A DNA stretch of 64,000 nt from Candidatus Kaelpia imicola (GCA_030765505.1 JAVCCL010000020.1:28538-92537); one strand, 5' to 3'. Numbered from the stretch's first letter, positions 38,912-64,000 are shown. A program made the numbers and translations. The notes: generated by a model not told the origin, from the letters alone.

Positions 38912-38928
38912 AAAATTTTAAGACTAAA

Positions 38929-43499: not shown

Positions 43500-43501
43500 A
43501 A

Positions 43502-45846: not shown

Positions 45847-46925
45847 AATGGAGAGTTATTCTTTTAAGTTTTATTTTAATATCTGCTGGGGTTATATTCC
45901 TTTATAGTTCTTCAGGTATATATTCTGAGATGGTCTTTGGGGATAGTTTCTATTACCTGAAACGTCAATTGCTGTTTATATTTCTAGGCCTAATAGCTGC
46001 TATAGTTGCTTACAAGGTAGATCTTAATAAAGTTGCAAGCCATAGCAGGGGACTTCTTTTTTTTGGATTAGCGATTCTTCTCTCTGTTCTTTTTTTTGGC
46101 ATACGTGCTGGCGGTGCTAAGAGGTGGTTTAGGCTGGGTGGTTTTGGTGTTCAGCCTATAGAGTTTGTGAGGATAATATATATAGTCTATTTGGCAGCAT
46201 TTTTAGAGAGGAGAAGGTATCTTTACAAAAATTTTAGCAGAGTATGCTTTCCGGTCTACTCTATTACCGCTATTTTAATGTTGCTTCTGATACTACAGCC
46301 GGATTTCGGTAATGCTATCTTCATAGCTTTGATCAGCATCTCTTTGCTTTATTTTACGGGAATTCCTTTTAAATTTTTGTTTTACACCCTCATAGGAATT
46401 ATTCCTTTTATCTCTATAGCATTTTGGAAACTACCCTATTTAAAACTAAGGGTCTTGGGTTTTCTATCTCCCTGGCGTCATTCTGAGAGCATAGGTTTTC
46501 AGTTAATACAGTCTTTTATAGCTATAGGCTCAGGTAGATTATTTGGTCATGGACTGGGTCTATCGCGACAGAAACTATTCTATCTTCCTCAAGCACATAA
46601 TGATTTTATATTTTCAATAGTCGCAGAAGAACTTGGTTTTTTAGGAGCATTCTCTTTGCTTTTGGTTTATATTTTTTTGATTTGGAACTTTATCTCTATT
46701 TTAAGTAGAATAGAAGGGTTATTTAAAAGATTGCTGCTTACAGGATTGATTATCTCTTTTAGTTATCAGATAGTTATTAATGTTGGGGTCTGTTTAGGGT
46801 TGTTGCCGACCAAAGGTTTGCCCCTTCCTTTTATAAGCTATGGCGGCTCTTCTATGATAGCGAATATGATTCTAATTGGATTGATTTTAAATATAGCTAA
46901 GAGAGGGGGCAGTCTTAGTGAATAA
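45834..46925 (+). CDS. ftsW: SEDS-family peptidoglycan polymerase FtsW.
   Basis: 10-TM SEDS protein with conserved motifs (PDFGNA, LPLPFISYGGSS). 363 aa. Confidence 0.85.
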   Translation: MQKLKWRVILLSFILISAGVIFLYSSSGIYSEMVFGDSFYYLKRQLLFIFLGLIAAIVAYKVDLNKVASHSRGLLFFGLAILLSVLFFGIRAGGAKRWFRLGGFGVQPIEFVRIIYIVYLAAFLERRRYLYKNFSRVCFPVYSITAILMLLLILQPDFGNAIFIALISISLLYFTGIPFKFLFYTLIGIIPFISIAFWKLPYLKLRVLGFLSPWRHSESIGFQLIQSFIAIGSGRLFGHGLGLSRQKLFYLPQAHNDFIFSIVAEELGFLGAFSLLLVYIFLIWNFISILSRIEGLFKRLLLTGLIISFSYQIVINVGVCLGLLPTKGLPLPFISYGGSSMIANMILIGLILNIAKRGGSLSE

Positions 46926-46968
46926 TATTCTGTATTATTTGTTTTAAGCGGTAGATTGGAATTTATTT

Positions 46969-48009
46969 ATGAACAGAGAGAGTATTTTTCTATTTGCGGG
47001 AGGTAGCGGCGGGCATGTCCACCCAGCTTTAGTCTTAAAAAAAGATTTAGAGTCCCGGGGTCATAAAGCGATTTTATTTATAAGCAACTTTTCTCATTTC
47101 GAGGCGGAATCGGGAATTAGAAGTTTTAAAATATCTAGACTGAAACTATTGGCTTTGATTCAATCTCTCTATATGTTTAATTATCTCTTGGTATTCTTTA
47201 TTTTAAAGAATACCAGTGTTGCCGTAGGGTTTGGCGGATATTATTCATTGGCGGGAATAGTAGCCGCAAAGATTCTTGGGAAGAAGACTTTTATATATGA
47301 ACCCAACATGGCGCTGGGGCGGTCCAATAGAATATTAGCTTATTTTGTAGATAGGATTTTAGTTTTATGGCCAGAGATATCTTTAAAATCTAAGTTAGGG
47401 TTCAAGATTAGAAGAATCAGGCCTTTAATAAGAAGAGAGAGCAGCTTAGTTGTAAAAGATAAGAGATGGCCATTCTCTATTCTGTTTGCAGGCGGGAGTT
47501 CTGGCTCAATGTTTTTAAACAATCTTTTTACAGAGATTATTCAAGGTGGCTTTTTAAGAGGCCAAGACTTAAGGCTTGTTCTCATAACGGGAGATAAGTT
47601 TTACCGCAAAGTCAAAGAGAGAATTGACGGTTTGAATATTAACAACAATCTTAATGTAGAGGTTTATAGTTTTCGCAATGATATGGAAATTTTTCTTGAT
47701 GATTTTGATTTTCTTATTTCCCGTGCCGGAGCTCAGATTATAGTTGAATCAATCTTCTCTGAGCTTCCGACGCTCTATATTCCTTATCCTTACGCTAAAG
47801 AGCATCAGCTTGAGAATGCGAGAAATATGCTGAGTAAGAGAGGTTCTTTTCTTATCAGGCAGGAACTGGCAGATGTAGAAGTTGTTGCTGGTTTTACGAA
47901 ATATATAGCAAGAGATAGAGAGGGTCTGAATCGGGTAAAAGTTAAATTGAGGCAGCTTAAGGGCAATTTCGAAAAAGCGGACAGGTCTATCGATATTATT
48001 TTAAAATGA
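46969..48009 (+). CDS. murG: Undecaprenyldiphospho-muramoylpentapeptide beta-N-acetylglucosaminyltransferase MurG.
   Basis: GT28 N-terminal glycine loop (FAGGSGGHVHPAL). C-terminal ENARNML-type motif (HQLENARNM). 346 aa. Confidence 0.85.
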   Translation: MNRESIFLFAGGSGGHVHPALVLKKDLESRGHKAILFISNFSHFEAESGIRSFKISRLKLLALIQSLYMFNYLLVFFILKNTSVAVGFGGYYSLAGIVAAKILGKKTFIYEPNMALGRSNRILAYFVDRILVLWPEISLKSKLGFKIRRIRPLIRRESSLVVKDKRWPFSILFAGGSSGSMFLNNLFTEIIQGGFLRGQDLRLVLITGDKFYRKVKERIDGLNINNNLNVEVYSFRNDMEIFLDDFDFLISRAGAQIIVESIFSELPTLYIPYPYAKEHQLENARNMLSKRGSFLIRQELADVEVVAGFTKYIARDREGLNRVKVKLRQLKGNFEKADRSIDIILK

Positions 48010-49364
48010 ACAGGAAGACCTCGTATTATTTAATTGGTATCTGTGGTATAGGTATGAGTTCGCTGGCTCAGCTTATTCAAAGCAGAGGTTTTAAAGTTAG
48101 AGGTTCGGATGCAAGTCCTGATGTTTTAATAGAAAGAAAACTGAGCTCTTTAGGTATTGAAGTATATTTTTCCCATGAAGCTGGAAGAATCAGAGAGAGC
48201 GATATAGTTGTCTATTCGACGGCTGTAGGGAAGAGTAATCCTGAATATATCGAAGCTAAAGGGAAGAACTGCGTTCTACTGCACAGGACATCTGCTCTGG
48301 TTGAAATGCTAAAGGACAGAAAATCCATTGCTGTTACGGGGACTCATGGTAAGACTACAATGACATATCTTCTTGCCTCTGTTCTAAGAAACTATGGTTT
48401 TGACTCGGGAATGATTTTAGGAGGCATATCAAAAGAGATAAACAATAATTTTATTCCCTCTAATTCAAATTATATTTTGGAATTGGATGAGAGTGACAGA
48501 AGTTTTCAGATTTTAGATTCTGATTTAAAGGTATTTACCAGTTTAGGTAATGACCATCTTGAATTTTACAATAATGATTTCTCTGAATTAAAGAGAGAGT
48601 TCAGGTGTTATATGCAAAAAGAAGGAGTTAATATTATATCCGCAGATGATAATTATCTGGTAGAGCTGGCAGAGGCAAGCTCTCTAAAGTATCTTAGTTT
48701 CGGATTTGGACCTAAAGCTGATTATAGGGGTGAATTAGTGGATAAAGGAGATTTTTTCTCAAAGATAAAGCTTTATAAGAACGGTAGTTTTATAACTGAA
48801 TATACTTTGCCCCTTATAGGCTATAAGAATGCATCTAATAGTTTAGCAGTATTTGCTCTTGCTGATATCTTAAAATTAGACCTTTTAAAGATTGCAGAAT
48901 CTTTTTCGGGTCTCTCTGGTATTGAGAGAAGGTATGATCTGAAGTTTTGTTCTAAAGCTGTAACTCTTATGGAAGATTATGCCCATCACCCCAGAGAGAT
49001 AGAGGAAGCGATAAGGACAGTTAAGGAATATTTAAAACCGCCAAGGATTTTGGTCGTTTTTCAGCCTCATAGGTATACAAGAACAGAGATGCTCTGGGAT
49101 GATTATAAAACCTGTTTTAAGGGCGGAGATAAGATCTATATTAGCGATATCTATTCAGCTTTTGAAGAGGTTATCCCCAGCATAAATTCCGAGATGCTGG
49201 TTGAGAATATAGGGTCTTCTAATGTTAAGTATGCTAAGATAGATGAGATTGCAGACTTACTGTTAAATGAAGTTAGGGAGGGTGATATGATCCTTCTCTT
49301 AGGCGCCGGCGATATAAACAAGATTTCAAAGAGATTAAGCGAAGGGTTATCAAGCATTGAATAG
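48006..49364 (+). CDS. murC: UDP-N-acetylmuramate--L-alanine ligase MurC.
   Basis: YLIGICGIGMSSLA N-terminus. Mur ligase P-loop VTGTHGKTTMT. 452 aa. Confidence 0.85.
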   Translation: MNRKTSYYLIGICGIGMSSLAQLIQSRGFKVRGSDASPDVLIERKLSSLGIEVYFSHEAGRIRESDIVVYSTAVGKSNPEYIEAKGKNCVLLHRTSALVEMLKDRKSIAVTGTHGKTTMTYLLASVLRNYGFDSGMILGGISKEINNNFIPSNSNYILELDESDRSFQILDSDLKVFTSLGNDHLEFYNNDFSELKREFRCYMQKEGVNIISADDNYLVELAEASSLKYLSFGFGPKADYRGELVDKGDFFSKIKLYKNGSFITEYTLPLIGYKNASNSLAVFALADILKLDLLKIAESFSGLSGIERRYDLKFCSKAVTLMEDYAHHPREIEEAIRTVKEYLKPPRILVVFQPHRYTRTEMLWDDYKTCFKGGDKIYISDIYSAFEEVIPSINSEMLVENIGSSNVKYAKIDEIADLLLNEVREGDMILLLGAGDINKISKRLSEGLSSIE

Positions 49365-50196
49365 CACTATCTTTGATGGCTACGGGTATTCGTTAAATCC
49401 TCTCTTTTTGCTTGAGATTTCAACGTTAGAGGAACTAAGGGGTACCGTTATTGATTTAAATAGCAAGTATCTAAGATATATGGTCTTTGGGAGATTAAAG
49501 AATATACTCTTCGCTAATCAGCGGAGCGATATTGTTGTTTTGAAGTTAAACGGCAGCATTTTTAAAAAGATTAAAAGAGAGGGAGATATTTTAGATGTTG
49601 GGGCAGGGGTAGAGGTTTCTGAATTGATGAGATTCTCTATAGATAATTCAATTGAAGGATTAGAGTATATGGTCGGCATCCCTTCTACTATAGCTGGGGC
49701 AGCCGTTGGAAATTCGGGGGCTTTTGGAAAAGAGATTTCCGAGAATATAGTTGAGGTTGAATGTCTAAATACTAAAGGAGAGCTGTTGATTTTAAATCGG
49801 GAAAAAATAGATTTTAAATATCGAGATTCCAATCTGGGAAATTTTATTCTGACCAAGGTGTTTTTGAAAATTGCTCTGGGGTCCAGGGCAGAGATAAAGA
49901 AAAATATGAAAGCTTATATAGAGAGGCGGTTCTATACTCAAGATCTAAGAGAGTCTTCCTGCGGTTGTTTTTTTAAAAACCATCTAGAACATAGAGCGGC
50001 TATTTTGATAGACTCTCTGGGTCTTAAGGGTTACAAAAGGGGCGGAGCCGTTGTTTCTGATAAGCACGCCAATTTTTTAATCAGTCTGGATAATAGTTCT
50101 TCTGAAGATATTCTGTCATTAAAAGATGTCTTGCAGAGGAGAGTTTGGAAAGATAAGAAGTTTTGGCTAGAGCCTGAAGTTAAACTAATATGGTAG
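49357..50196 (+). CDS. murB: UDP-N-acetylenolpyruvoylglucosamine reductase MurB.
   Basis: FAD-binding PCMH-type domain motifs (VGIPSTIAGAAVGNSGAFG). 279 aa. Position in the dcw cluster. Confidence 0.8.
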   Translation: MNSTIFDGYGYSLNPLFLLEISTLEELRGTVIDLNSKYLRYMVFGRLKNILFANQRSDIVVLKLNGSIFKKIKREGDILDVGAGVEVSELMRFSIDNSIEGLEYMVGIPSTIAGAAVGNSGAFGKEISENIVEVECLNTKGELLILNREKIDFKYRDSNLGNFILTKVFLKIALGSRAEIKKNMKAYIERRFYTQDLRESSCGCFFKNHLEHRAAILIDSLGLKGYKRGGAVVSDKHANFLISLDNSSSEDILSLKDVLQRRVWKDKKFWLEPEVKLIW

Positions 50197-51152
50197 CAGA
50201 TTTAAAAAAATATAGGATTGGAGTTTTAAGAGGAGGACCCTCTTCGGAGCGGGAGATATCTTTGCTTTCAGGAGAGTCAGTTTTAGAGATTTTGGAAAAG
50301 AGAGGTTTTGAAGTTAGAGATATTATAGTTCCGGAGAGAAAAGATAGGAAATATTTAAAAAGCTGGATTTTAAAAGTTTTAAAAGAAGAGAAGATAGACC
50401 TCTGCTTTATAGCGTTGCATGGATGGTTTGGTGAAGATGGAAATATTCAGAAAATATTGGACGAATCCAATTATCTTTATACAGGCTCTAATAAGCATGC
50501 CTGCAAAATATCTATGGATAAGATAGCCTCGAAAGATGTTTTTGAAAAGAATCTTATACCAACACCCCGCTATTTTATAGTTGATGCTGAGAGTAAAGTA
50601 AATTGGTCATTGCTTAAATTCCCGGCTATCCTGAAACCTTCTTCTCAGGGTTCAAGTATAGGGATTTATAAGATCAAAGATAGCATCGAAGCAGAATATC
50701 TTATACCTGAGGTTCTCAATTACGATGGAAGAGTTTTGGTCGAGGATTTTATAGAAGGAATAGAACTTACCGTTGGAATAGTGGAAGATAAGCCTCTTGC
50801 TGTAATCAAAATATCTTCCTCCAGTGATATTTATAATTATGAAGTTAAATATACTGATGGCTTAAGCAGCTACTCAATTCCGGCTGATATAGATAAAAGA
50901 TTGACTGAGAGAGTTCAAGGATTAGCTCTTAAGGCTCACCGGGCGATAGGATGCAATATGTTTTCTAGAGTAGATATACTATATTCAACGGTTAGAGATG
51001 AGGTTTTTGTTTTGGAGGTCAATACTATTCCCGGACTTACGAAAATTAGCCTTTTACCCAAAGCTGCCAAAGTTTGCGGGATTGAATTTGACGAACTAGT
51101 ATTAAAAATGTTAGAATCTGCCTTCAAGGGAGAGAGATGTTTAAGAAGATAG
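50190..51152 (+). CDS. ddl: D-alanine--D-alanine ligase Ddl.
   Basis: ATP-grasp motifs (IALHGWFGEDG, ILKPSSQGSSIGI, LEVNTIPGLT). 320 aa. Confidence 0.85.
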   Translation: MVADLKKYRIGVLRGGPSSEREISLLSGESVLEILEKRGFEVRDIIVPERKDRKYLKSWILKVLKEEKIDLCFIALHGWFGEDGNIQKILDESNYLYTGSNKHACKISMDKIASKDVFEKNLIPTPRYFIVDAESKVNWSLLKFPAILKPSSQGSSIGIYKIKDSIEAEYLIPEVLNYDGRVLVEDFIEGIELTVGIVEDKPLAVIKISSSSDIYNYEVKYTDGLSSYSIPADIDKRLTERVQGLALKAHRAIGCNMFSRVDILYSTVRDEVFVLEVNTIPGLTKISLLPKAAKVCGIEFDELVLKMLESAFKGERCLRR

Positions 51153-53105: not shown

Positions 53106-54215
53106 GTGAAAATACTTCAAATAATTACTCACCTGGAGATAGGCGGTGCTCAAAAAGCAACTCTTCTTTTATCTCAAGAACTTATAAATAGAGGCCACGA
53201 GGTTGTTGTTTTATCTTCTGCCCAAGGCGGATTATTAAAAGAGTTTAAAGAAAAATTAGGTCCAAATTTTAGAAGTTTATGTTTTTTAAAAAGAGGTATA
53301 AATCCTATTTTTGACCTTTTAGCTTTTTTCTCAGTTTTCATCTATGTAAAAGAACTCAGTTTTGATCTGATCCATACGCACTCTTCTAAAGCCGGCATTT
53401 TAGGGCGCTGGGCTGCTCTCTTCTCATCTGTCAATTCTGTCCATACTGTCCATGGTTTTGCTTTTCATGATTATCAAAATTTTATTTTGAGATACTGTTT
53501 TATTTTGATTGAAAGAGTTACAGCTTTTATATCGGGTAAGATCATATTTGTATCCGAAGAGGTTAAAAAAAAGGCGTTTAAGAATTTTATAGTAACTACC
53601 GAAGAGAAAACAGAGGTTATCTATGAGCTTGTCAAGATTGATCCGCCTGAGCATAGAATAAAAAATAAAGATTTTTTTACAATAGGTATGGTTGCCCCGT
53701 TGAAAGAGCAGAAGAGGCCCGAGGATTTTCTGAAATTTGCGGTATCTTTAAGCAGAATACGCAAAGATGTAAGGTTTGTTTTAGTGGGGGATGGTAAATT
53801 GAGGCCAAAGCTGGAGATAGACGCGAAGAGATCTGGCATTCTATGTAAAGTTGAATTTAAGGGTTGGAGAGATGATGCTTATACCATAATGCAATCTTTT
53901 GATATCTTTGTGCTTACCAGCATCTTCGAGGGTCAACCGCACGTAATAATAGAAGCAATGTCGTTATCAATTCCGGTAATTGCTACTGCGGTTGATGGAG
54001 TAAGGGATTTGGTTTCTCAAGGTGAGAATGGATTTTTAGTCGAGCCTTGTAAGCCCCATGATATAGTATGCTTGGCTAATAGGCTATTAGATGATAAAGT
54101 ATTGAGAGAGTCTATTGGATCTAAAGGACGTAGCTATTTTGAGACTGAGAAAAGGTTTAACTACATTGAAAACATTAGTAAAATCGAAAAGCTGTATGAG
54201 TCTACAATGAAATGA
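53106..54215 (+). CDS. GT4-family (GT-B fold) glycosyltransferase.
   Basis: GTG start 3 nt after the ftsA stop. MKILQIITHLEIGGAQK N-terminus. C-terminal EGQPHVIIEAMSLSIPVIAT (E-X7-E motif region). 369 aa. Confidence 0.8.
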   Translation: MKILQIITHLEIGGAQKATLLLSQELINRGHEVVVLSSAQGGLLKEFKEKLGPNFRSLCFLKRGINPIFDLLAFFSVFIYVKELSFDLIHTHSSKAGILGRWAALFSSVNSVHTVHGFAFHDYQNFILRYCFILIERVTAFISGKIIFVSEEVKKKAFKNFIVTTEEKTEVIYELVKIDPPEHRIKNKDFFTIGMVAPLKEQKRPEDFLKFAVSLSRIRKDVRFVLVGDGKLRPKLEIDAKRSGILCKVEFKGWRDDAYTIMQSFDIFVLTSIFEGQPHVIIEAMSLSIPVIATAVDGVRDLVSQGENGFLVEPCKPHDIVCLANRLLDDKVLRESIGSKGRSYFETEKRFNYIENISKIEKLYESTMK

Positions 54216-55168
54216 ACAGAGTAGAAGTTTTCAACATAATGCTCATCTGTTTCGCGTTCTCTTTTTTCCTTTCTAAGTTTTTCTATAAAAAGAAAATCAA
54301 AGTAGGCAAAAAAGAGCAATCTACGCACGGTGGAGTTATAATTTTAGCGACAGTTTTTTTGGGAATATTAATATCTCCTTTAAGAGATACGTATTATGTC
54401 TGGAAGCTGTTCCTGCCTTTCTTTTTAATGTTTCTTTTAGGTTTTATCGATGATTATAAGCATCTCTCTCCTTATCCAAAGCTGATTGCCGAAATATTTA
54501 TAATACTTCTCGCGCTCTTTATGGGTTTTAAGACTGAAATCATGTACTTTCCTAGTTATCTTAATTATCTCGTCTCTTTGGTTTGGATTTTGATTTTAAG
54601 CAATGAATTTAATTTTTTAGATATAATGGATGGCCTCTCTTTGGGCAGCATCATAGCCGTGGCTTTGACGTTTACAATAATCGGTTTGATAAACTTTCAA
54701 CCTTTCAATCTTCTTTTTGCGGCAGTTGTTCTGGCCTCCTGCCTGGGTTTCTTTCCTTACAATTACCGTAAAGCATCTGCTTATCTTGGAGATAGCGGCA
54801 GTCTATCGCTGGGCTTGCTTATGGCTATTTTAGCTATATCGTTTAGTTATACGAGAGAAAATAGACCTATGGTCCTATTGACCCCTGTTATTATATTCGG
54901 GCTTCCTATTTTTGATTTTTTATATCTTACGATAAGAAGGGTCTGGCAACGGAAGTCTATTTTGAGAAAAAGTCCTGACCATCTTGCAATACTTATGCAT
55001 ATTAATGGAGCCTCTAGGAAAAGAGTAATATATAAGTTCTGGCTTATATCAGCAGGTTTTGCTTCTACAGCACTATTGCTTCAGTTCGGTTCGAGACTTT
55101 TAGGTGTTGTTGCATTGATTATCTCTATATTCCTTTTCTTTGAAGTTGCTTTACGATGCTATAAATGA
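54212..55168 (+). CDS. Polyprenyl-phosphate N-acetylhexosamine-1-phosphate transferase (MraY/WecA/WbpL PNPT family), a second PNPT paralog inside the dcw cluster.
   Basis: Multi-TM protein with a DD motif (GFIDDYK), NFLDIMDGL and LGDSGSLSLG. Short form of 318 aa. Overlaps the GT4 stop by 4 nt. Confidence 0.75.
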   Translation: MNRVEVFNIMLICFAFSFFLSKFFYKKKIKVGKKEQSTHGGVIILATVFLGILISPLRDTYYVWKLFLPFFLMFLLGFIDDYKHLSPYPKLIAEIFIILLALFMGFKTEIMYFPSYLNYLVSLVWILILSNEFNFLDIMDGLSLGSIIAVALTFTIIGLINFQPFNLLFAAVVLASCLGFFPYNYRKASAYLGDSGSLSLGLLMAILAISFSYTRENRPMVLLTPVIIFGLPIFDFLYLTIRRVWQRKSILRKSPDHLAILMHINGASRKRVIYKFWLISAGFASTALLLQFGSRLLGVVALIISIFLFFEVALRCYK

Positions 55169-56490
55169 AAAAGAGTGTAAATAATTTAATCCTTGGTTCA
55201 GGTATAACAGGGTTGAGCTGCGGCCTACATTTAGGAAATTTAAGTAATAAAAAAGGTGGATTTTCATCAGACTATTTAATCCTTGAAAAAGAGAAGGGTG
55301 TTGGAGGTTTAGCCCGATCTATCAAAAAGAAAGGTTTTGTATTTGACTATAGTGCTCATCTCCTGCATTGCAGGGATCCCTATTTTTCAAAATGGGTGGA
55401 GAATAATCTTAAAAAAAGTCTCAAGTTTCATAAAAGAAATGCCTGGGTCTACTCGCATGGGGTATTTACCAAATATCCTTTTCAGGCAAATCTCTATGGT
55501 TTGCCTAGAGATGTAATAAAGGATTGTCTTTTGGGCCTTTTGAGTTTGAATGGTTTTAGTGATAGTAAGCCCAATAATTTTGAAGAGTGGTGTTATAACA
55601 AATTCGGCAGCGGAATTTCTAAACACTTTATGCTTCCCTACAATGAAAAGTTTTGGAATATAGCAGCTAAAAAAATTACGCTAGAATGGATAGATGGTTT
55701 TATACCTCAGCCGCAGCTTAGGGATATGGTTAAAGGGGGATTTGAATATTCCCATAAAGAGTTTGGCTACCATAGCAAATTTTACTATCCTATTAATGAA
55801 GGGATAGAGCTTATAGTTAAGAAAATCAGTTCAAAATGCAGCAATATAGTACTCAAAGAAAAAGCAGAAAAGATAAACTTAAAAGAGAGATGGGTTTTAA
55901 CCTCTAGAGGCAGAAAGATTTATTACAATAATTTAGTCTCTACTCTTCCTATGGTGGATTTAAACGACATGATTATCGGAATCGATAGCAATATCAGTAA
56001 TCTTTTTCGCAAGTTAAAGTATATCTCTGTTATTAATGTAAATATGGGCATAAAACGGCCGAATATATCCGATAAAGACTGGGTCTATTTTCCGGAAGAC
56101 AACTTCTCTTTTTATCGTATTGGGTTTCCGATGAACTTTGCTCCTTCTTCTACACCTAGCGGTTTTAGCTCAATATATATAGATATCTCTTATTCAGGTT
56201 CTTTGGCTATCAACAAGAGAAAAGAGAGTATTATTGAACGGGTAAAAGCTGATTTGATCAAACTGGGTATTATTGGTGAAGAAGAGAGCATCCCGGTCGT
56301 GGACTATAATGATATTAAGTATGCTTATATACTCTATGATAAAAATTGGTCTCATGCTCGAGGTGGAATTATTGATTATCTTTTAAAAAATTCCGTATAT
56401 TCTGCTGGGAGATTTGGTTCCTGGAGCTATCTCTCTATGGAGGGGTGTTTTTTAGAGGGCAGGAGAATAGCCAATATATTAAAGAGATGA
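55165..56490 (+). CDS. FAD-dependent oxidoreductase, UDP-galactopyranose mutase / amine-oxidase-like.
   Basis: N-terminal dinucleotide-binding loop (ILGSGITGLSCGLHL...EKEKGVGGLARS). 441 aa. Overlaps the previous stop by 4 nt. Confidence 0.55.
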   Translation: MKKSVNNLILGSGITGLSCGLHLGNLSNKKGGFSSDYLILEKEKGVGGLARSIKKKGFVFDYSAHLLHCRDPYFSKWVENNLKKSLKFHKRNAWVYSHGVFTKYPFQANLYGLPRDVIKDCLLGLLSLNGFSDSKPNNFEEWCYNKFGSGISKHFMLPYNEKFWNIAAKKITLEWIDGFIPQPQLRDMVKGGFEYSHKEFGYHSKFYYPINEGIELIVKKISSKCSNIVLKEKAEKINLKERWVLTSRGRKIYYNNLVSTLPMVDLNDMIIGIDSNISNLFRKLKYISVINVNMGIKRPNISDKDWVYFPEDNFSFYRIGFPMNFAPSSTPSGFSSIYIDISYSGSLAINKRKESIIERVKADLIKLGIIGEEESIPVVDYNDIKYAYILYDKNWSHARGGIIDYLLKNSVYSAGRFGSWSYLSMEGCFLEGRRIANILKR

Positions 56491-56511
56491 AACATTTGAC
56501 AGCTTTTTATT

Positions 56512-57570
56512 ATGATCTTTGACGACCTATGTCTCTACCTAAGGCTCTATCCTGAAATTTTAAATCTTAGATTTGCGAGAGAGATGATATACTATCTCTT
56601 AAAAGGTGTTAGCAGGCATCCAATATCAATTAATTTTCTAATAACTTCTAAATGTAATTTTAAGTGCAAGATCTGTAGTTATTACGGTAATTCAGGGACT
56701 CATTTTTCAGAGCTGAGCTTTCAGGAATTTGTAGATTTCTTAGATCAGGTTCAAGCTTTTAAACCCTTGATTTTTTTAGGCGGCGGAGAGCCTTTTATAA
56801 GAGAAGATATATATTCCATGTTGGAGGAGATAGAGAAGAGAGAGCTTAAAGTGATAGTGTCGACAAATGGTTATTTGTTAGATTTAGATAGAATATCTTC
56901 TTTAAACTTAGATTCGCTCATCCTCTCTCTATATGGACCTGAGTCGATTCATGATAGTATTACTGGAGTTCCTGGTTCTTATTCTGTAGTTGTTAAAAAA
57001 ATAAAAAAGATAACAGCTGATAATATGGTTAAAAATTTAGTTGTATCTACAATCCTATTGCCTTCAAATTTCAAACATCTCTCTGAGTTCAGTGATTCTG
57101 TTTTTGCTTTAGGAGTTGATTCAATTAAAATTGAAAACCTTAATTATCTAACAGAAGAAGAGTTTGGGAGTTCTACTGAAGAGATGGCCGACCTTATTTT
57201 AAAACCCCATACTCTTGTTTTAGACAAGCATTGCTTCAGCAGAACCGATTTAGAGTATGCTTGGAACAGCATCAATGTTTTAAGAAGAAGATATAAAGGT
57301 AGATTATTTTTGAAGCCAGCTCTAAACAAGAGAGATTTTTTAAAATGGTATTGCGAGGGCAAAACTTTTAAGGGTTGTCATTTTATAAGACATTCTATCT
57401 TTGTCTCATCTTCCGGAGATATTATACCTTGTCAGTTTTTAAGTAAAACTAAGCTTGGAAAAATAGACAAAAATGTTGTAAAATACATATGGAACTCGAA
57501 GAGATATAATGATTTTAGAGAGTTTGTGCAAAGGACTGGCTTAGAAGTTTGTAAACGTTGTTGTAAATAA
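56512..57570 (+). CDS. Radical SAM enzyme with a C-terminal SPASM/twitch-like cysteine cluster.
   Basis: CX3CX2C motif (SKCNFKCKICSY). SAM-binding glycine motif (IFLGGGEPF). C-terminal cysteines (C...CQF...CKRCCK). 352 aa. Confidence 0.75.
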   Translation: MIFDDLCLYLRLYPEILNLRFAREMIYYLLKGVSRHPISINFLITSKCNFKCKICSYYGNSGTHFSELSFQEFVDFLDQVQAFKPLIFLGGGEPFIREDIYSMLEEIEKRELKVIVSTNGYLLDLDRISSLNLDSLILSLYGPESIHDSITGVPGSYSVVVKKIKKITADNMVKNLVVSTILLPSNFKHLSEFSDSVFALGVDSIKIENLNYLTEEEFGSSTEEMADLILKPHTLVLDKHCFSRTDLEYAWNSINVLRRRYKGRLFLKPALNKRDFLKWYCEGKTFKGCHFIRHSIFVSSSGDIIPCQFLSKTKLGKIDKNVVKYIWNSKRYNDFREFVQRTGLEVCKRCCK

Positions 57571-57583
57571 AAGGTTTTAAGTT

Positions 57584-58120
57584 ATGGATTTTGAACAAAA
57601 ATGGAAGAGGGCTGTAAAGAATACTGAAATAGAGAAAGGCTGGGTGGGCTATCTAAATACCAATTCGAGCACAACGCTCTCTTATATAATGCTCTCTGAA
57701 TCGATGCTTGATAATTCAGATACTGTTATCAGAAAAGGCAAGGTCGAAGTAACGCGACCCTTAATATACTTACCGGATAACAACCCTGTATTTGAAGGTT
57801 TTGAATTATCGAGTCAGAATCTATTTAATAGTTCTGTTTTGACTTTTCTTCTGTTGAGAGGAGTAAGTTTTCCTTCTTTAAAATACCAGAATAGTGTTTA
57901 CTCTCTGGATATTGACAATCTCTCTTTGACTGAGGCGGTTAAAAAGCATAAAAGAGAGCTTCAAAGATTGGAGGATGTTAAGACCGGTCTCATAGTAGGG
58001 TCTGATGACTGCTGGCATTACTCTCTTGCTATCTATGTTGCAGCTCTGACCTCTAAATCTGCCTCTAATGACATAGAGAGGTATCTTAAAGATTTAAAGA
58101 GTAGGTTTGAAGATAGGTAG
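57584..58120 (+). CDS. Hypothetical protein (178 aa) with no recognisable domain.
   Basis: ORF immediately downstream of the radical SAM gene (13-nt gap). No signal peptide or TM helix is apparent. Confidence 0.45.
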   Translation: MDFEQKWKRAVKNTEIEKGWVGYLNTNSSTTLSYIMLSESMLDNSDTVIRKGKVEVTRPLIYLPDNNPVFEGFELSSQNLFNSSVLTFLLLRGVSFPSLKYQNSVYSLDIDNLSLTEAVKKHKRELQRLEDVKTGLIVGSDDCWHYSLAIYVAALTSKSASNDIERYLKDLKSRFEDR

Positions 58121-58171: not shown

Positions 58172-59116
58172 ATGGAAGAGAGAGAAGTTTTTGCAAAAGT
58201 TAACAGTTTAATAGAGAACATCGAAAAAGTTATACTGGGAAAGCACGATGCCGTTCAACTGGCAGTAGCTGTATTTCTATCCGAGGGTCATCTATTGATG
58301 GAGGATGTTCCCGGAGTAGGTAAAACTGTACTTGCTAAGTCTATGGCTAAATCATTTTCGGCAAGCTTTAGGAGAATACAATTTACACCCGACCTTCTTC
58401 CTTCAGATGTTACGGGCAGCTATATATTTAACCAGAAAAATTCCGAATTTGAATTTAGGTCCGGTCCGGTCTTTGCTAATATAGTTATAGCTGATGAGAT
58501 TAACCGCGGTACTCCTAGGACGCAGAGCGCTCTTCTGGAGCCTATGGAGGAGTATCAGGTTACTGCGGATGGTAATACTTTTCAACTTGATAGGCCATTT
58601 TTCTTGATAGCTACTCAGAATCCCGTTGAGAGGGAAGGCACCTATTTTCTTCCTATCTCACAGCTGGACAGATTTCTGGTCAAGATGGGTATGGGGTATC
58701 CCGAAAAAGCTGAAGAGATTCAGATTCTTTTAGACAGAGAGAGAGAGGATCCTCTAAATAAAATTGAGGCTGTAATTACCAAAGAAGAAATTCTTGAGAT
58801 TCAAAAATTTGTAAAAGCTATTAAGGTGGATGCTAAGATATACGAATATGTTATCAGCATAACACAGACGACTCGTGAGACTGATAAACTTATTCTGGGA
58901 GCGAGCCCCAGGGCATCTCTTGATCTATTTAGGTTATCTCAGGCTCTGGCACTAATGGAGGAGAGAACATATTGTATTCCTGACGATGTTAAGAAAGCTG
59001 CTCCACTGGTTCTTGCTCATAGGGTTATACCGTCTTCACCTGCAAAGACAGAGATTGGTAATACTCAGGAGATAATTAAAAAACTAGTAAATGAAATCTC
59101 CGTTCCTATCCAATAA
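58172..59116 (+). CDS. MoxR-family AAA+ ATPase.
   Basis: Walker A motif (GVGKTVLAKSMAKSF). Walker B motif (VIADEINR). MoxR-type C-terminal helical domain. RBS AAAGGAGG upstream. 314 aa. Confidence 0.9.
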   Translation: MEEREVFAKVNSLIENIEKVILGKHDAVQLAVAVFLSEGHLLMEDVPGVGKTVLAKSMAKSFSASFRRIQFTPDLLPSDVTGSYIFNQKNSEFEFRSGPVFANIVIADEINRGTPRTQSALLEPMEEYQVTADGNTFQLDRPFFLIATQNPVEREGTYFLPISQLDRFLVKMGMGYPEKAEEIQILLDREREDPLNKIEAVITKEEILEIQKFVKAIKVDAKIYEYVISITQTTRETDKLILGASPRASLDLFRLSQALALMEERTYCIPDDVKKAAPLVLAHRVIPSSPAKTEIGNTQEIIKKLVNEISVPIQ

Positions 59117-60386
59117 TAAGGGTTGCTGTGTTTTAACAGAGTTTGGCTTATATGCTCTGATTGTAGCGGTATTTTTAACTTCTCTTGGTTTTATACTGCA
59201 GTCCAATCTTATCTATCTTGTAGCATCAGGACTCTGGGGGCTTGTTTTGACTGACTTTTTATTTTCTTTTCTCTCCTTGAGAGGAATAAGGGTTACAAGA
59301 TTTGCTCCGACTCATGCAGTTAGAGGTGAGGATTTTAAAATAAGAATAAGATTAGAGAATAGAGGGTTCTCTAAGTACTTAATAAGATTGACTGATAGTA
59401 GTTTTACTGAAAATATATCCGGGGTAGAGCTTCCTATTGTACGTAGTTTAAAAAACAGTGAGATTTTAGAGCTGGATTATATTATGAAAATTAAAGCAAG
59501 GGGTGTTCATAATCTTGAGTCTGTTCAGGCAGAGAGCAGTTTTCCTCTTGGTCTTTGGAGGAGGGTTATAAATTTTCCCTCCAGATCCAAAATTACCATA
59601 TACCCTGAATTTTACGAGGTGCCTCAATTTGCGGTATCTTATAGGGGTATGAGATCGGAGTTTGCAAATACATCTTCTAATAGGCCTGGTATGGGCGGTA
59701 ACTTTTTGCAGATACGAGAGTATCAATACGGGGATAGTTTAAAGAATATTCATTGGAGAGCAACGGCTAGAACAGGAAAGCTTATGGTCAAAGAGCTAGA
59801 GAAATTTACTCTTTCAAACCTTTCTATAGTATTAGATAGTTCCTCTAATATGGTTTTAGGATTGCTTGAAGAGTCCAATTTTGAATATGCAGTTAAAACA
59901 GCTGCAACTATAGCCAACAAAGCTTTGAGTACTCGCTATCATGTAAAGCTTATATACTACAATCAGATTAAAAAGAAGATCGAGTTTAAGAAGGCTTACG
60001 GCCGAATGACTCCAATATTAGACAGCCTTTCTAAGATAGGTACGACGGAGAGGATAAATGTCAAAGATCTCGTAGATGCTTCTATACCTGAGATTGAGAA
60101 GGAGTCTGTTGCGGTTTTTGTCTTACTCTCCCTTAACTCTGATGTTACTCAAAAAATCATACAACTTGCAAATCAGGGTATTGATTCTGTGCTTGTCGTA
60201 TTTGATCCCAGGTCTTTTGCCGCTGTTCTGGATAAGAAGATTGGGAATTTTTATAATGTCTTCTCCCAACTTATGAGCGGAGAAGCGTTCTATTTAACTG
60301 GTGAAGGTATAAGGGTGTATATGGTAAAACATGGCGATCGTATACCTGATGCGTTAAGTAGACCGCATATGTTTTTATCTTCTTAA
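59091..60386 (+). CDS. DUF58-family protein (vWA-like), the usual partner of MoxR ATPases.
   Basis: Two N-terminal TM helices. DUF58 signature (FLQIREYQYGDSLKNIHWRATARTGKLMVKELE). 431 aa. Confidence 0.85.
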   Translation: MKSPFLSNNKGCCVLTEFGLYALIVAVFLTSLGFILQSNLIYLVASGLWGLVLTDFLFSFLSLRGIRVTRFAPTHAVRGEDFKIRIRLENRGFSKYLIRLTDSSFTENISGVELPIVRSLKNSEILELDYIMKIKARGVHNLESVQAESSFPLGLWRRVINFPSRSKITIYPEFYEVPQFAVSYRGMRSEFANTSSNRPGMGGNFLQIREYQYGDSLKNIHWRATARTGKLMVKELEKFTLSNLSIVLDSSSNMVLGLLEESNFEYAVKTAATIANKALSTRYHVKLIYYNQIKKKIEFKKAYGRMTPILDSLSKIGTTERINVKDLVDASIPEIEKESVAVFVLLSLNSDVTQKIIQLANQGIDSVLVVFDPRSFAAVLDKKIGNFYNVFSQLMSGEAFYLTGEGIRVYMVKHGDRIPDALSRPHMFLSS

Positions 60387-60387
60387 A

Positions 60388-63300
60388 ATGTTTTATATTA
60401 TTTCATTTTTACTGGTAAGCATTGGCATAACAGCTCTTCCGCTTATTGAAGGAGTGGGCTCCAGCCTGATTCTTGCAGGTTCTATTTTTACTTTTGGTTT
60501 CGTGTTGACGCAGCTGATTAAAAAATTCCACTTTTCAAAAAATGTTGCCAGAGCGTTACTCTTTATTGCCTTAATTATTGGGGTTGGAGCATTCTTTACT
60601 TCAGGTAATTCCGGAGAGTGGGCAATTGTATGGCTGATATGGTATCTTATCCTCTCTTTTCAGGTTATAAGCATCTTTAGCTCTAAAGATGTTAAGGGTT
60701 GGTTTAGCTCTTATCTTTTGAGTTTTATTCAGCTTTCTCTGGGCGGCATTTTTACAGAGAAGCTACTTTTCTTGGTCATCTTCTCTCTTTACCTGGCTTT
60801 ATCAGTATTCGGTTTCATTTTTTTGCTTCCTAAAATAGAGATACGGGACAAAATTTTAAAATTGATAAAACCCCGCTTAGATTTAGCAAAATGGGGTGCC
60901 TTAACAACCGTCAATGTCTTTTTTATAACAGGGTTAGTTTTTCTCATCTTGCCGAGGACTCAAAGCCCACTCTTTGCAGTTAAAAAAGAGATACATCTTG
61001 TTGAGAAGTTAAAAAAAGAAGTTGATTTTACAGAGGAGATGACAGAAGAAGAAGCTGTGAGCCTACCTGAGGAGATTGAGCTGGGAACTATATCCGAATT
61101 AAAAAATGAAAATAAGATGTTGATGTTGATAGAGACGGAGAGACCGTTTCTTTTTAGAGCCCAGGCTTTCAATTATTACGATGGCAGCAGTTGGATTAAA
61201 TACGGCAGTAAGTCCGTAACCATCAAAGTAAAAGATAATAAGATTAATTTTAAACCGCTCTATCTGAGAAAAGAACTCTTTGTTAAAACGACACCTGACA
61301 AGTTTTACCATCAAAAGTTTTATATTAAGAACTATTCTCAAAATCTTATTCTAAGCTCTTACCCTATTATAGGTCTATCTGGTTCAGATGTAGAAAAGAT
61401 TAAGATAGACCATTTTGAAAATATTTATTTACAGAGAAAACTTAAGTTTGGAGATGAATATGAGGTAATCTCTGTTGATAAGAGCTATCCTTCTAATTAT
61501 CTGAGGTCGCTGCCGAGGAAGTACCCCAGAGAGATTATGGATCTATACCTTCAGCTTCCGCCCAATATAGATAAAAGATTGATGGATTTGACTTCTAAGA
61601 TTTTAAAATATACACCCACCAATATTTACGATGAATTGATAACTCTTAGGAAATATTTGAAAGAGCATTGTATCTATAGTCGGTTAAATACCGGCAAAAG
61701 CCCGACGCTGTATGAATTCCTCTTTGATAAAAAGCCTGGTGATTGCGAGTATTTTGCAACAGCTTTGGCTTTAATGCTGCGTTATCGTAATATTCCTACG
61801 CGTTTTGTCATAGGGTTCTCAGGGGGGGAGTTTGATTCTCAGAAGAGAACCTCTATTATTTATGCAAAGAATGCTCATGCTTGGATAGAGGTTTTCTTCC
61901 CTACTATAGGATGGTTGCCCTGCGATGCAACCCCTAAGGCTCTTCTTCAAGAGCAGTGGGAAGAAGCCCCTAAGATGTTAGCCTTAAAACCTCAAGATTA
62001 TCCAGAGGATAGAGGATTTGCTGGCGAAAGCGGCAGCGGTGAGACGGCTGATTCAAAGCAGAGCTTAGAGAGGCAGGAGATTGCCGGGGAGGGTATTCCC
62101 GAGGAAGAGCTCTTGCCGCAGGATTATTATTTCAAAGATAGGTTATCTCAACATGGTTTTACTAAAGAGGAGATTGTTTTTTCAGAAGAATTTTTTGAAG
62201 AGGCGGCTACTCCTGCTGAATTAGCTGCCGAAGAAGAGGATCTATCCGGTCAAGGTTATACTGGAGATAAAGAGATAGCTACATTTGAAGAAGAGAGAGC
62301 CGAAGGCCTTTTAAGAGAGGATGAAGTAACCGAGGAGATTTTTACAGAAGAGGAGGCAGAGGAGTGGTTCTATAGAGAAGAAGGAGCGTTTAAAGAAGAG
62401 GAAGTAGAAGCAGAGACTGAATCAATAAGTGAGGATGATGTTTTTGAAGAAGTCGCTTTTTCAGAAGAAAGGGTAGAGACTGCTGTTAAAATAGAAAAGG
62501 AGCCGGCTGAAGGTGAGACTCTTGAAGAAGATTTAGCATCTTTTTATCAAGATAGTGAGGATTTAGGATTTACCGAAATAGCATCCGGGCTTGAACAGGA
62601 AGAAAAAGTTGTTGAAGAAGAAGTTTTGGAAGAAAAAAAATTAGCATCTCTGCCTAAAGAGCTTGAAGAAGGTTCAGTAAGAGTCGATTTAGAAGATGAA
62701 TTTAAAAAAGAAGATTTTGGCAAAGAGGAGGATCCTGCTGACTCTTCTTCTATTACGGAAGCTTCTTTAGAAGAAGGGATATCTGAACAAGAGTATCTTT
62801 CTGAAGAACTGTTATCTTCTGGTGATGTTGAGGTAGCGGAAAAAGACGTGCTCTCTGATGAAGGATTGACAATGGAAGACAGTGTTCCTTTGGAGCAAGA
62901 AGTGCTTCTGGATCAAGAGATTCAAGACCAAGAGATTGCTTCAGATCTATATCTGGATTCTTCTGTGTCGCCTGGAATTCCTATAACGGCTATGGACGAG
63001 GAAGAAGAGGGAGAGATTACAGAATTAATAGATGAAGAAGATGATATTATCCCTGATTTAGATATTGTCGAAGAGGAGGTTGCTTTAGAAGAGGATGTAA
63101 TATTAGAAGAACTGCCCGCTGAAGATCTGGTATCAGAAGAAGAATCATTAGAAGAGAGTGAAGAAGTTGCTTTTGAAGAAGATACAACATTGGAAGAGGA
63201 GATGGTTCAAGAGGATGATGTTTTTGAAGAAGTTTTAGAAGAGAGTGCGGAGACTATTATTAAAGAGGATGTGGTTGAGGGAGAGGTATCTGAAGAAGAG

Positions 63301-64000
63301 GATGTTTTGGGTGAAGTTGAGGTTGATAGCGAGAAAGAAGATTTAAAAATTGTTGAAGATATTGTACTAGAAGAGATAGGGGAGGCGGAAGAGTTTTTAA
63401 TTGAGGATATAGATGTTGCCCAAGAATTTACTCAAGCCGAAGAAATAATAGAAAATGATCTTCCTGAAAGAGAGATAGCTGCTTTAGATATCGGTACTGA
63501 AGTTAAAGAAGAAAAGCTCTTTGATGATATTCCCGAGATAGTTGAAGAGGAGTCTGTTCCAGAGGTATTATTGCCTGAAGATATTGAAGATAAGTTAGAA
63601 GATTCTCTGGGTAAGAATATTCTTTTTAAAGATGATTTTGAATTGATTGTTGAAGAAGATCTATCAAGGATTGAGGATGTTGCAGGAGAAGAGTTTGAGG
63701 CTGAAGATGTTTCAGTTGAAGATATGATCCCAGAAGAGGATTCAATTTCAGGTGAATTAGGCTTCTTGTTTAACATTTTAAAAGATAAGCTCAAAGAGTG
63801 GATTTTTGGATTCTCTTACTATACTCAAGCTCTAATAGTAGATTTTATTAAAGGTATATTTGTAGGTATTAAGAGTTTCATTTACGGAATAGGTGCTATC
63901 ATTTATAGTCATCTTAAAAATAATAAGACACCGTATTCTTTATCTATTGTTACATTCTTTGTGGCGTTTTTACTCTGGGCGCTGTTTAAAGAATTAATCA
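60388..64000 (+). CDS. Transglutaminase-like (TgpA-type) polytopic membrane protein with a very long acidic low-complexity insertion. 3' truncated by the window edge.
   Basis: ATG at 60388, one nucleotide after the DUF58 stop. Seven N-terminal TM helices (DUF3488-like). Transglutaminase Cys-His-Asp core (GDCEYFATALALMLRY...AHAWIEVFFPTIGWLPCDATP). Then a glutamate-rich stretch of roughly 590 aa and at least two C-terminal TM helices. The ORF is still open at 64000. Confidence 0.8.
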   Translation, partial: MFYIISFLLVSIGITALPLIEGVGSSLILAGSIFTFGFVLTQLIKKFHFSKNVARALLFIALIIGVGAFFTSGNSGEWAIVWLIWYLILSFQVISIFSSKDVKGWFSSYLLSFIQLSLGGIFTEKLLFLVIFSLYLALSVFGFIFLLPKIEIRDKILKLIKPRLDLAKWGALTTVNVFFITGLVFLILPRTQSPLFAVKKEIHLVEKLKKEVDFTEEMTEEEAVSLPEEIELGTISELKNENKMLMLIETERPFLFRAQAFNYYDGSSWIKYGSKSVTIKVKDNKINFKPLYLRKELFVKTTPDKFYHQKFYIKNYSQNLILSSYPIIGLSGSDVEKIKIDHFENIYLQRKLKFGDEYEVISVDKSYPSNYLRSLPRKYPREIMDLYLQLPPNIDKRLMDLTSKILKYTPTNIYDELITLRKYLKEHCIYSRLNTGKSPTLYEFLFDKKPGDCEYFATALALMLRYRNIPTRFVIGFSGGEFDSQKRTSIIYAKNAHAWIEVFFPTIGWLPCDATPKALLQEQWEEAPKMLALKPQDYPEDRGFAGESGSGETADSKQSLERQEIAGEGIPEEELLPQDYYFKDRLSQHGFTKEEIVFSEEFFEEAATPAELAAEEEDLSGQGYTGDKEIATFEEERAEGLLREDEVTEEIFTEEEAEEWFYREEGAFKEEEVEAETESISEDDVFEEVAFSEERVETAVKIEKEPAEGETLEEDLASFYQDSEDLGFTEIASGLEQEEKVVEEEVLEEKKLASLPKELEEGSVRVDLEDEFKKEDFGKEEDPADSSSITEASLEEGISEQEYLSEELLSSGDVEVAEKDVLSDEGLTMEDSVPLEQEVLLDQEIQDQEIASDLYLDSSVSPGIPITAMDEEEEGEITELIDEEDDIIPDLDIVEEEVALEEDVILEELPAEDLVSEEESLEESEEVAFEEDTTLEEEMVQEDDVFEEVLEESAETIIKEDVVEGEVSEEEDVLGEVEVDSEKEDLKIVEDIVLEEIGEAEEFLIEDIDVAQEFTQAEEIIENDLPEREIAALDIGTEVKEEKLFDDIPEIVEEESVPEVLLPEDIEDKLEDSLGKNILFKDDFELIVEEDLSRIEDVAGEEFEAEDVSVEDMIPEEDSISGELGFLFNILKDKLKEWIFGFSYYTQALIVDFIKGIFVGIKSFIYGIGAIIYSHLKNNKTPYSLSIVTFFVAFLLWALFKELI
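62000..63760 (+). repeat. GAA/GAG-rich coding low-complexity region (poly-acidic, glutamate-rich) with internal imperfect repeats.
   Basis: Hundreds of Glu/Asp codons. The exact 23-mer gaggatgatgtttttgaagaagt occurs twice (62431-62453 and 63211-63233), each encoding EDDVFEEV. Confidence 0.7.

Follow-up and report, generated by a model that had tools for sequence, protein, structure and literature searches.

Operons that encode a MoxR-family ATPase, a DUF58 protein and a TgpA-type transglutaminase are widespread, and tgpA is essential in Pseudomonas aeruginosa; the cellular role and membrane topology of the system are unsettled. In this paper we describe such an operon at positions 58172-64000 of a 64,000-nucleotide stretch of DNA from Candidatus Kaelpia imicola (GCA_030765505.1 JAVCCL010000020.1:28538-92537), the whole of which is referred to below as the window. 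The transglutaminase-like protein of this operon carries, between its catalytic core and its C-terminal membrane anchor, an acidic tract of about 605 amino acids (aa) that is predicted to be disordered. We compare this tract with the linkers of the wider TgpA family, follow it through related genomes and weigh the explanations that can be given for it.

Results

Organization of the operon

The three genes are tightly packed on the plus strand (Table 1). The start of the DUF58 gene overlaps the 3' end of the MoxR gene by 26 nt, the ATG of the TgpA-like gene, at 60388, stands one base past the DUF58 stop, and an AAGGAGG ribosome-binding site is found upstream of the MoxR gene. The TgpA-like frame is open through base 63999, giving 1204 codons, and over this interval the remaining two plus-strand frames are interrupted by 99 and 128 stops. 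An earlier reading of this DNA, the original prediction, had described overlapping or abutting genes for the three proteins and a transglutaminase of more than 1200 aa at the window end, and both statements hold.

Pfam matches of all three proteins exceed the curated (gathering) cut-offs. The MoxR protein matches AAA_3 (2.7e-60, 202.4 bits, cut-off 27) and AAA_lid_2 (2.9e-21, 75.4 bits, cut-off 22.7) and has a Walker A motif GVGKT at aa 48, a Walker B motif ADE at aa 107-109, ATQNP at aa 147 and GASPRA at aa 243. The DUF58 protein matches PF01882 (5e-14, 52.4 bits, cut-off 23.4); because its N-terminus consists of two hydrophobic helices followed by a basic stretch, its body is predicted to be cytoplasmic, which we consider likely. 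NCBIfam offered no equivalog for the DUF58 or TgpA proteins. Promoter and terminator scans at the locus performed no better than on shuffled sequences, and the limits of the operon therefore rest on gene spacing and on synteny, which was found in six loci (L001, L003, L004, L009, L010 and L011); the DUF58 gene follows the MoxR gene in L001, L004, L009, L010 and L011. Together these results show a canonical MoxR (AAA_3)/DUF58/TgpA operon of an Omnitrophota bacterium.

Domains and catalytic core of the TgpA-like protein

The TgpA-like protein matches TgpA_N over aa 8-364 (2.9e-13, 50.0 bits, cut-off 30) and Transglut_core over aa 410-514 (4e-19, 69.3 bits, cut-off 23). The motifs GDCEYFA, AHAWIEV and CDATP, all of which had been quoted in the original prediction together with GVGKT, are present and hold the predicted catalytic residues C453, H497 and D513, respectively. 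The prediction would have been undermined by a catalytic triad that varied among homologs; in an alignment of 38 sequences, however, the Cys and the His are each conserved in 38/38, and the third position is Asp in 34/38 and Glu in 4/38.

Among solved structures, a sequence search matched only 6g49, the periplasmic domain of P. aeruginosa TgpA (E 1e-13). In an AlphaFold2 model built from the 38-sequence alignment, the domains overall have a predicted local distance difference test score (pLDDT) of 80-97, with about 80 in the seven N-terminal helices and more than 90 at aa ~220-515. Foldseek searches with the modelled ectodomain retrieved 6g49 and 6g4h (E 1.3e-18, TM-score 0.77, target-normalised), and sequence identity over the fold alignment is only ~19%. 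Sequence and modelled fold together identify the enzyme domain as a true TgpA ectodomain. The architecture of the protein is thus shown to be the standard one, namely a TgpA_N region with seven transmembrane (TM) helices, as had been claimed and as both hydropathy and AlphaFold indicate, followed by the ectodomain, a juxtamembrane helix and a last TM helix, with a DUF4129 tail in orthologs.

Composition of the acidic tract

The insertion between the catalytic core and the C-terminal anchor, originally put at about 590 residues, measures ~605 aa. It contains 27.9% Glu and 9.6% Asp (37.5% D+E, or ~227 carboxylates) and 5.8% K+R, with ~18 Gln and ~25 Lys, and has a net charge of -192, while the remainder of the protein has +14. 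The description of the tract as poly-acidic was an overstatement: no stretch of D/E is longer than 5 residues, and ~28% of the tract consists of L/I/V/F/M. AlphaFold gives a pLDDT below 50 and largely coil over most of aa 519-1124, which agrees with the disorder that had been presumed, and the tract is accordingly predicted to be disordered. Its contour length would be ~218 nm and its size as an expanded coil, by a rough computed estimate, ~25 nm.

Tandem Repeats Finder detected only trivial arrays of at most 53 nt in the tract, and a self-BLAST returned the identity match alone. Within aa 521-1125, hydrophobic residues recur with a ~5.3-residue period (power 7.7 vs 3.7 ± 0.47 in shuffled sequences, z ~8.7). 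There is no amphipathic alpha or beta signal and no detectable repeat unit, and the ~5.3-residue spacing could be what remains of an old short repeat. Three islands are conserved. The longest, at aa 566-605 (Table 1), aligns across the window protein, P0043, L002, P0044, P0046 and P0001 and is a candidate short linear motif, judging from this alignment; the others, conserved across the clade described below, are QWE..PK just past the core and EDMIPE(E/D)D ahead of the juxtamembrane helix.

The acidity does not extend to neighboring proteins. The densest 100 aa of the TgpA-like open reading frame (ORF) contain 50 D+E, against at most 27 in every other window ORF of at least 150 aa. A 'salt-in' proteome, acidic throughout, was rejected because these other ORFs, with net charges of -18 to +29, are neutral to basic, and the acidity is regarded as a trait of the TgpA-like protein. 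Ser-rich antisense ORFs that face the tract (minus strand, window 63432-63794 and L001 6667-7032) were likewise rejected as genes, being a by-product of GAA/GAG-rich codons.

C-terminal region and membrane topology

Between the tract and the window end lie two helices (Table 1). The plural C-terminal TM helices of the original prediction were not recovered: one is an amphipathic juxtamembrane helix, with a hydrophobic moment of 0.49 (aa 1138-1172) vs 0.10-0.15 in TM helices, and the other, TM8, is the one true TM helix. The juxtamembrane helix is conserved across the clade, P0002 and P0045 included, and is too polar for a membrane span in P0044 and P0046. The window ends just ahead of a Lys/Arg cluster and DUF4129 tail known from orthologs; in the full-length ones TM8 is followed by an RKKRKK-type cluster and then by a DUF4129 domain, which scores above the cut-off of 24.8 bits in P0043 (26.3) and P0045 (32.2) and just below it in L007 (21.6). 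By comparison with these we infer that the missing C-terminus of the window protein comprises ~95-115 residues, made up of the Lys/Arg cluster and DUF4129.

Counts of K+R in seven clade members are ~4, 2 and 7 for the loops that follow TM2, TM4 and TM6 and 0-1 for those that follow TM1, TM3 and TM5. By the positive-inside rule these loop charges place the N-terminus inside, give 7+1 TM helices and put both the transglutaminase domain and the tract on the outer side, so that the enzyme domain and the tract are, with good confidence, predicted to be periplasmic. This assignment agrees with work on P. aeruginosa TgpA, in which a periplasmic domain was predicted at aa 180-544 and tryptic 'shaving' of that region was reported (PMC3507681), and with the title of the 6g49 entry ('periplasmic domain'), and it conflicts with the topology proposed by Zhang et al. 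2012, which is taken up in the Discussion.

The tract in related genomes

The nearest TgpA homologs are from genomes named Omnitrophota or Ca. Saelkia tenebricola; Ace Lake, Antarctica, is the site from which the genera Ca. Kaelpia and Ca. Saelkia were described (PMC8542988). At least six independent assemblies contain an in-frame tract at the matching position: L001 (= P0043; core identity 81%, 1299 aa), L002 (76%, the contig ending within the tract), L007 (88%, 1319 aa), P0044 (66%, 1170 aa), P0045 (45%, 1337 aa) and P0046 (61%, partial, at least 1114 aa). L008 (89%) is partial, with an ORF of 1019 aa whose length is consistent with a tract, the tract sequence itself not having been inspected. 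The distance from the core end to the juxtamembrane motif is 621 aa in the window protein, 629 in L007, 608 in P0043, 479 in P0044, 645 in P0045 and 651 in P0046. Net charge per residue of the tract ranges from -0.19 to -0.30 across the clade, and composition and length are kept down to 45% core identity, with Lys reaching up to 11% in the P0045 tract.

Between the window and L001, identity is 82% in the TM region, 81% in the transglutaminase ectodomain and 52% in the tract, where 94 and 81 residues are unaligned. The ratio of nonsynonymous to synonymous substitution rates (dN/dS) for this pair is 0.03 in MoxR, 0.08 in DUF58, 0.11 in the TM region, 0.08 in the ectodomain and 0.30 in the tract, values that come from a dS of ~1.1, near saturation, and from an uncertain alignment of low-complexity sequence. 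These substitutions clearly show the tract to be coding sequence on which purifying selection, though relaxed, is real. Comparison of the homologs shows the linker expansion to be a heritable trait of an Omnitrophota clade, in which sequence and indels turn over fast.

A sister subclade (P0002, P0003, P0004 and L010, the last at L010 13459-15477) has tandem repeats of the PPEEE(V/A)T type at the matching linker site. These inserts contain 20% Pro and are ~150 to at least 190 aa long, with several contigs ending inside the repeat. Recent local duplications are evident in the tracts of P0001 and P0046. In L002 a scaffold gap of 100 N (4121-4220) falls in the tract, and a stretch coding for ADSSGSSD is duplicated on its flanks; the tract region is evidently hard for short-read assemblers.

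Rarity within the TgpA family

An exhaustive HMMER search (E <= 1e-3) found 30,523 members of the TgpA family, counted as cluster representatives. For comparison we used a sample of 189 collected homologs, 99 of which are complete single-core TgpA-like proteins. The linker was measured from the catalytic Asp to the next TM helix, because a global alignment of 38 sequences misplaced C-termini inside the tract. In the 99 proteins this distance has a median of 76 aa (interquartile range 62-85) and a maximum outside the clade of 112; it is 530-666 aa in the clade, 198 in the PPEEE form and 670 in the window protein, so that the insertion, which the original prediction had called unusual, is exceptional for the family. 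A 100-aa stretch with at least 33% D+E occurs in 9/189 homologs, seven of which belong to this clade; the two outside it are unrelated surface proteins with multiple cores, each followed by a short acidic linker. In the literature searches made, no TgpA variant with an acidic tract was described. The operon is a new form of a known system, in which the linker of TgpA is acidic, disordered and expanded eight-fold, and not a new kind of system.

Table 1. Positions of the operon, its parts and neighboring features (window coordinates unless a relative is named).
Feature	Position	Strand	Basis or remark
MoxR-family AAA+ ATPase, 314 aa	58172-59116	+	Pfam AAA_3, AAA_lid_2
DUF58 protein, 431 aa	59091-60386	+	Pfam PF01882
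TgpA-type membrane transglutaminase-like protein	60388-64000	+	TgpA_N and Transglut_core; 3' end beyond window
N-terminal membrane domain, aa 1-190, seven TM helices	60388-60957	+	Hydropathy, AlphaFold
Ectodomain with papain-like transglutaminase core, aa 191-519	60958-61944	+	Pfam, 6g49 match, AlphaFold
Cys453 codon, predicted catalytic	61744-61746	+	In GDCEYFA
His497 codon, predicted catalytic	61876-61878	+	In AHAWIEV
Asp513 codon, predicted catalytic	61924-61926	+	In CDATP
Acidic tract, predicted disordered, aa ~520-1125, ~605 aa	61945-63762	+	Composition, AlphaFold, homologous tracts
Conserved island in tract, aa 566-605, EG.PEEELLP.DYYFKDRLS....KEE..FSEEFFEE	62083-62202	+	Clade alignment
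Amphipathic juxtamembrane helix, aa 1126-1177, motif LKEW..FSYYTQ...DFIK	63763-63918	+	AlphaFold helix 1122-1177
TM8, aa 1183-1203	63934-63996	+	Hydropathy, AlphaFold
Antisense ORF upstream of tract	61099-61341	-	Open frame
178-aa protein of unknown function	57584-58120	+	Syntenic with triad
178-aa gene in relatives	L001 1926-2462; L004 3150-3686; L009 3267-3803; L010 and L011 9001-9537		
GGDEF and HD-GYP gene (cyclic di-GMP turnover) between 178-aa gene and MoxR	L010 9524-11035; L011 9524-11065	-	
Division/cell-wall (dcw) cluster, complete-looking	38902-51149	+	Upstream of triad
GT4 (MraY/WecA-like) glycosyltransferase, amine-oxidase-like flavoprotein, radical-SAM/SPASM enzyme	54212-57570	+	Pfam

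Genomic neighborhood

The gene for a 178-aa protein precedes the triad, and its product is 100% identical to a protein of Ca. Kaelpia imicola, in agreement with this organism as the most likely source. Its 25 homologs are all ~178 aa long with 28 invariant residues, and those that are named come from Omnitrophota/Omnitrophica or from metagenome-assembled genomes of an unclassified 'bacterium'. The protein has no Pfam match, and its AlphaFold model (pLDDT 71) has no significant fold match in the PDB. The gene always lies between a radical-SAM/SPASM gene and the triad, and the block of radical-SAM, 178-aa, MoxR, DUF58 and TgpA genes recurs in L004, L009, L010 and L011 with rearranged flanks. From this synteny the 178-aa protein is a possible fourth component of the system, apparently restricted to Omnitrophota.

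Further upstream, the dcw cluster contains genes for an ftsI-like penicillin-binding protein, murE, murF, mraY, murD, ftsW, murG, murC, murB and ddl. Several Omnitrophota loci keep the GT4, flavoprotein and radical-SAM/SPASM genes, which may form a glycan- or peptide-modification module, beside the triad. The DUF58-TgpA pair of L003 adjoins ftsA, ftsQ and ddl, and this arrangement, together with the dcw neighborhood of the window, lends weak support to a role related to the cell envelope.

Discussion

A proposed polyanionic loop beside the active site

We lean, on balance, towards the reading that the tract is a clade-specific linker expansion in TgpA that forms a periplasmic entropic and electrostatic polyanionic loop beside the active site. 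The ends of the tract are tethered, one to the ectodomain (~50 residues from TM7) and the other to the juxtamembrane helix and TM8, and because it is anchored at both ends we regard it as a polyelectrolyte loop and not as a stalk. Lying close to the active site, such a loop would have entropic and electrostatic effects: it could hold off anionic envelope polymers and the membrane surface, could concentrate cationic partners such as divalent cations, polyamines and basic protein or peptide-stem substrates, and could govern how far apart the catalytic domain and the juxtamembrane helix lie or how freely they move. The aromatic-acidic island at aa 566-605 might then be a docking motif. Other MoxR-vWA pairs suggest, by analogy, that the basic loops and the DUF4129 tail are the parts of TgpA on which MoxR and the membrane-anchored DUF58 protein would act, from the cytoplasm. 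The sister subclade fills the matching site with a different but likewise extended and anionic PPEEE sequence, which argues that it is a physical property of the linker that is selected.

Several observations weigh against this reading. The dN/dS values are approximate, given the near-saturated dS and the uncertain low-complexity alignment, and the heavy indel turnover (94 and 81 unaligned residues between orthologs that are otherwise 81% identical) also fits weak constraint. The 3' end of the window's own gene was not recovered, an exact 47-mer from the window end having no match among metagenome contigs. In the window protein the juxtamembrane segment has a rather hydrophobic character (mean 0.62), and by sequence alone it might form a ninth TM helix. 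In addition, Zhang et al. 2012 predicted that the transglutaminase-like (TGL) domain of MoxR-vWA-linked YebA-like proteins is cytoplasmic, between TM7 and TM8 (PMC3495828); were the domain cytoplasmic, the tract would adjoin MoxR.

Alternative explanations

That published prediction is the starting point for an alternative in which the TGL domain and the tract are cytoplasmic, following the Zhang-Aravind model of a MoxR-vWA-TGL degradation machine close to the membrane, and in which the tract serves as an engagement tail, as a regulatory pseudo-substrate for the MoxR unfoldase or as a nucleic-acid mimic. Direct contact would be simplest there, since MoxR and the predicted DUF58 body are both cytoplasmic, and disordered tails are commonly engaged by AAA+ unfoldases. 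The loop charges, however, give an inside N-terminus and seven TM helices, so that the domain faces out; the Lys/Arg cluster after TM8 agrees with an outside domain, and the P. aeruginosa protein is taken to be periplasmic, the crystal structure being that of its periplasmic domain. We consider a cytoplasmic tract quite improbable. If the tract is instead periplasmic, its ~227 carboxylates in 605 aa and net charge of -192 could make it a cation or mineral sink, as the original prediction had suggested, that binds and buffers Ca2+, Mg2+, Fe or further cations or nucleates mineral, in the manner of acidic biomineralisation or calsequestrin-type proteins, and the relatives L007 and L008 do come from the saline, anoxic water of Ace Lake (PMC8542988). 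The tract has, however, no recurring Ca-binding motif and no repeat unit, its D/E runs are short, and its charge is diluted in some clade members, such as the Lys-rich P0045. No biomineralisation genes were noticed among the Pfam-annotated ORFs at 38.9-51.1 kb and 54.2-64.0 kb. The finding that the activity of P. aeruginosa TgpA is Ca2+-independent and unchanged by ethylenediaminetetraacetic acid (PMC3507681) takes away one reason to expect that the tract binds cations. A cation sink is for these reasons unlikely, though it retains some standing.

A near-neutral, runaway expansion would require no function of the tract at all: a permissive linker would gather duplications and slippage, and acidity would only keep the junk soluble and exportable. 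The 52% identity of the tract vs 81% in the domains, its large indels, a dN/dS three to four times that of the domains, the recent local duplications in P0001 and P0046 and the contigs that break within PPEEE repeats are all expected under such a process. On the other side, a dN/dS of 0.30 is far under 1, six lineages whose core identity falls to 45% all keep a tract length of 479-651 aa, islands are conserved, and the ~5.3-residue hydrophobic spacing (z ~8.7) is non-random. Omnitrophota genomes are small, and ~1.8 kb of junk would thus be costly; we hold near-neutral expansion to be rather unlikely. Almost no weight is left for an assembly or sequencing artefact, which would have counted against the original prediction and by which collapsed or chimeric repeats or a frameshifted pseudo-ORF would have produced the tract. 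The scaffold gap in L002 and the contigs of several relatives that end inside the tract might suggest one, but the window tract is free of DNA repeats, the frame of 1204 codons stays open in a genome with 37% guanine plus cytosine, homologous in-frame tracts under purifying selection occur in independent assemblies of different projects, and the substitution pattern is that of coding sequence. A bolder proposal, and one that we think has only a slim chance of being correct, is that the tract is a periplasm-spanning polyanionic tether or self-substrate that is crosslinked (through Gln/Lys) or cleaved by the adjacent transglutaminase under MoxR/DUF58 control. If this were true, the tract would be a selected, active part of the machine instead of a passive linker, the island at aa 566-605 and the ~5.3-residue spacing would be functional features, and Omnitrophota would possess an ATP-regulated means of attachment, release or remodelling of a charged envelope layer.

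The clade is a natural experiment, in that a linker of ~600 residues of polyanion provides a handle on the topology and the substrate of the module, and a binding partner of the tract could point to the substrate of the system. To our knowledge, few bacterial membrane enzymes have an acidic disordered region as long as this tract, and it belongs to an uncultured, poorly understood phylum.

Comparison with known systems

The three-gene order of the window is identical to that of PA2875 (MoxR), PA2874 (DUF58) and PA2873 (TgpA; 6g49, 6g4h) of P. aeruginosa, a triad that is co-transcribed and in which the PA2873 product is 668 or 688 aa long (PMC3507681). The TgpA of P. aeruginosa resembles the window protein in having TgpA_N, Transglut_core, a C-terminal TM helix and tail, and equal catalytic residues; it differs in the distance from core to last TM helix, for which ~76 aa is typical of the family against the 670 aa of the window protein with its acidic tract. 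Essentiality and transglutaminase activity have been shown only for Pseudomonas TgpA.

YebA-like proteins share with the window protein a set of eight TM helices, a TGL domain that is placed between TM7 and TM8, and a strict linkage to MoxR and vWA/DUF58-type genes, and for these the TGL domain was proposed to be a peptidase and MoxR an unfoldase (PMC3495828). The same study predicted a cytoplasmic TGL domain and described no giant linker, whereas the loop charges of the window protein indicate a periplasmic one. The Bat/aerotolerance operon (BatA-E), which would have genes for vWA BatA/BatB and TPR BatC past MoxR-DUF58, was considered and rejected, as the DUF58 gene is followed by TgpA and then, in orthologous loci, by hom and thrC; the next genes past TgpA in these loci are hom, thrC and recA. 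The MoxR-vWA-beta-propeller ternary conflict system was also rejected, with bpMoxR scoring 19.5 bits, below the cut-off of 27, and no adjacent beta-propeller gene.

The actinobacterial Esr pathway and MoxR-vWA-beta-propeller systems pair MoxR and vWA proteins with an envelope-facing transglutaminase, as is predicted for the window, and the EsrD transglutaminase has been proposed to attach a surface filament covalently (bioRxiv 10.64898/2026.09.08.750141). The window locus is unlike them in being without beta-propeller, kinase and FHA genes. The PFNA cluster of Bifidobacterium (pkb2, fn3, aaa-atp, duf58, tgm), going by the titles and abstracts on it, likewise has a MoxR-type ATPase, a DUF58 protein and a transglutaminase core; it adds a Ser/Thr kinase and an FN3 adhesin and has no acidic tract, and it belongs to a different phylum with a different envelope type.

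The closest comparison is with the PPEEE-type TgpA of the sister subclade (P0002, P0003, P0004 and L010), which is 42-45% identical to the window protein, shares its operon and insertion site and has an insert that is also anionic and non-globular. The PPEEE repeat resembles rigid Glu-Pro spacers such as that of TonB. The two forms differ in that the PPEEE insert is a Pro-rich tandem repeat, whereas the Kaelpia-type tract is non-repetitive, Pro-poor and 480-650 aa long.

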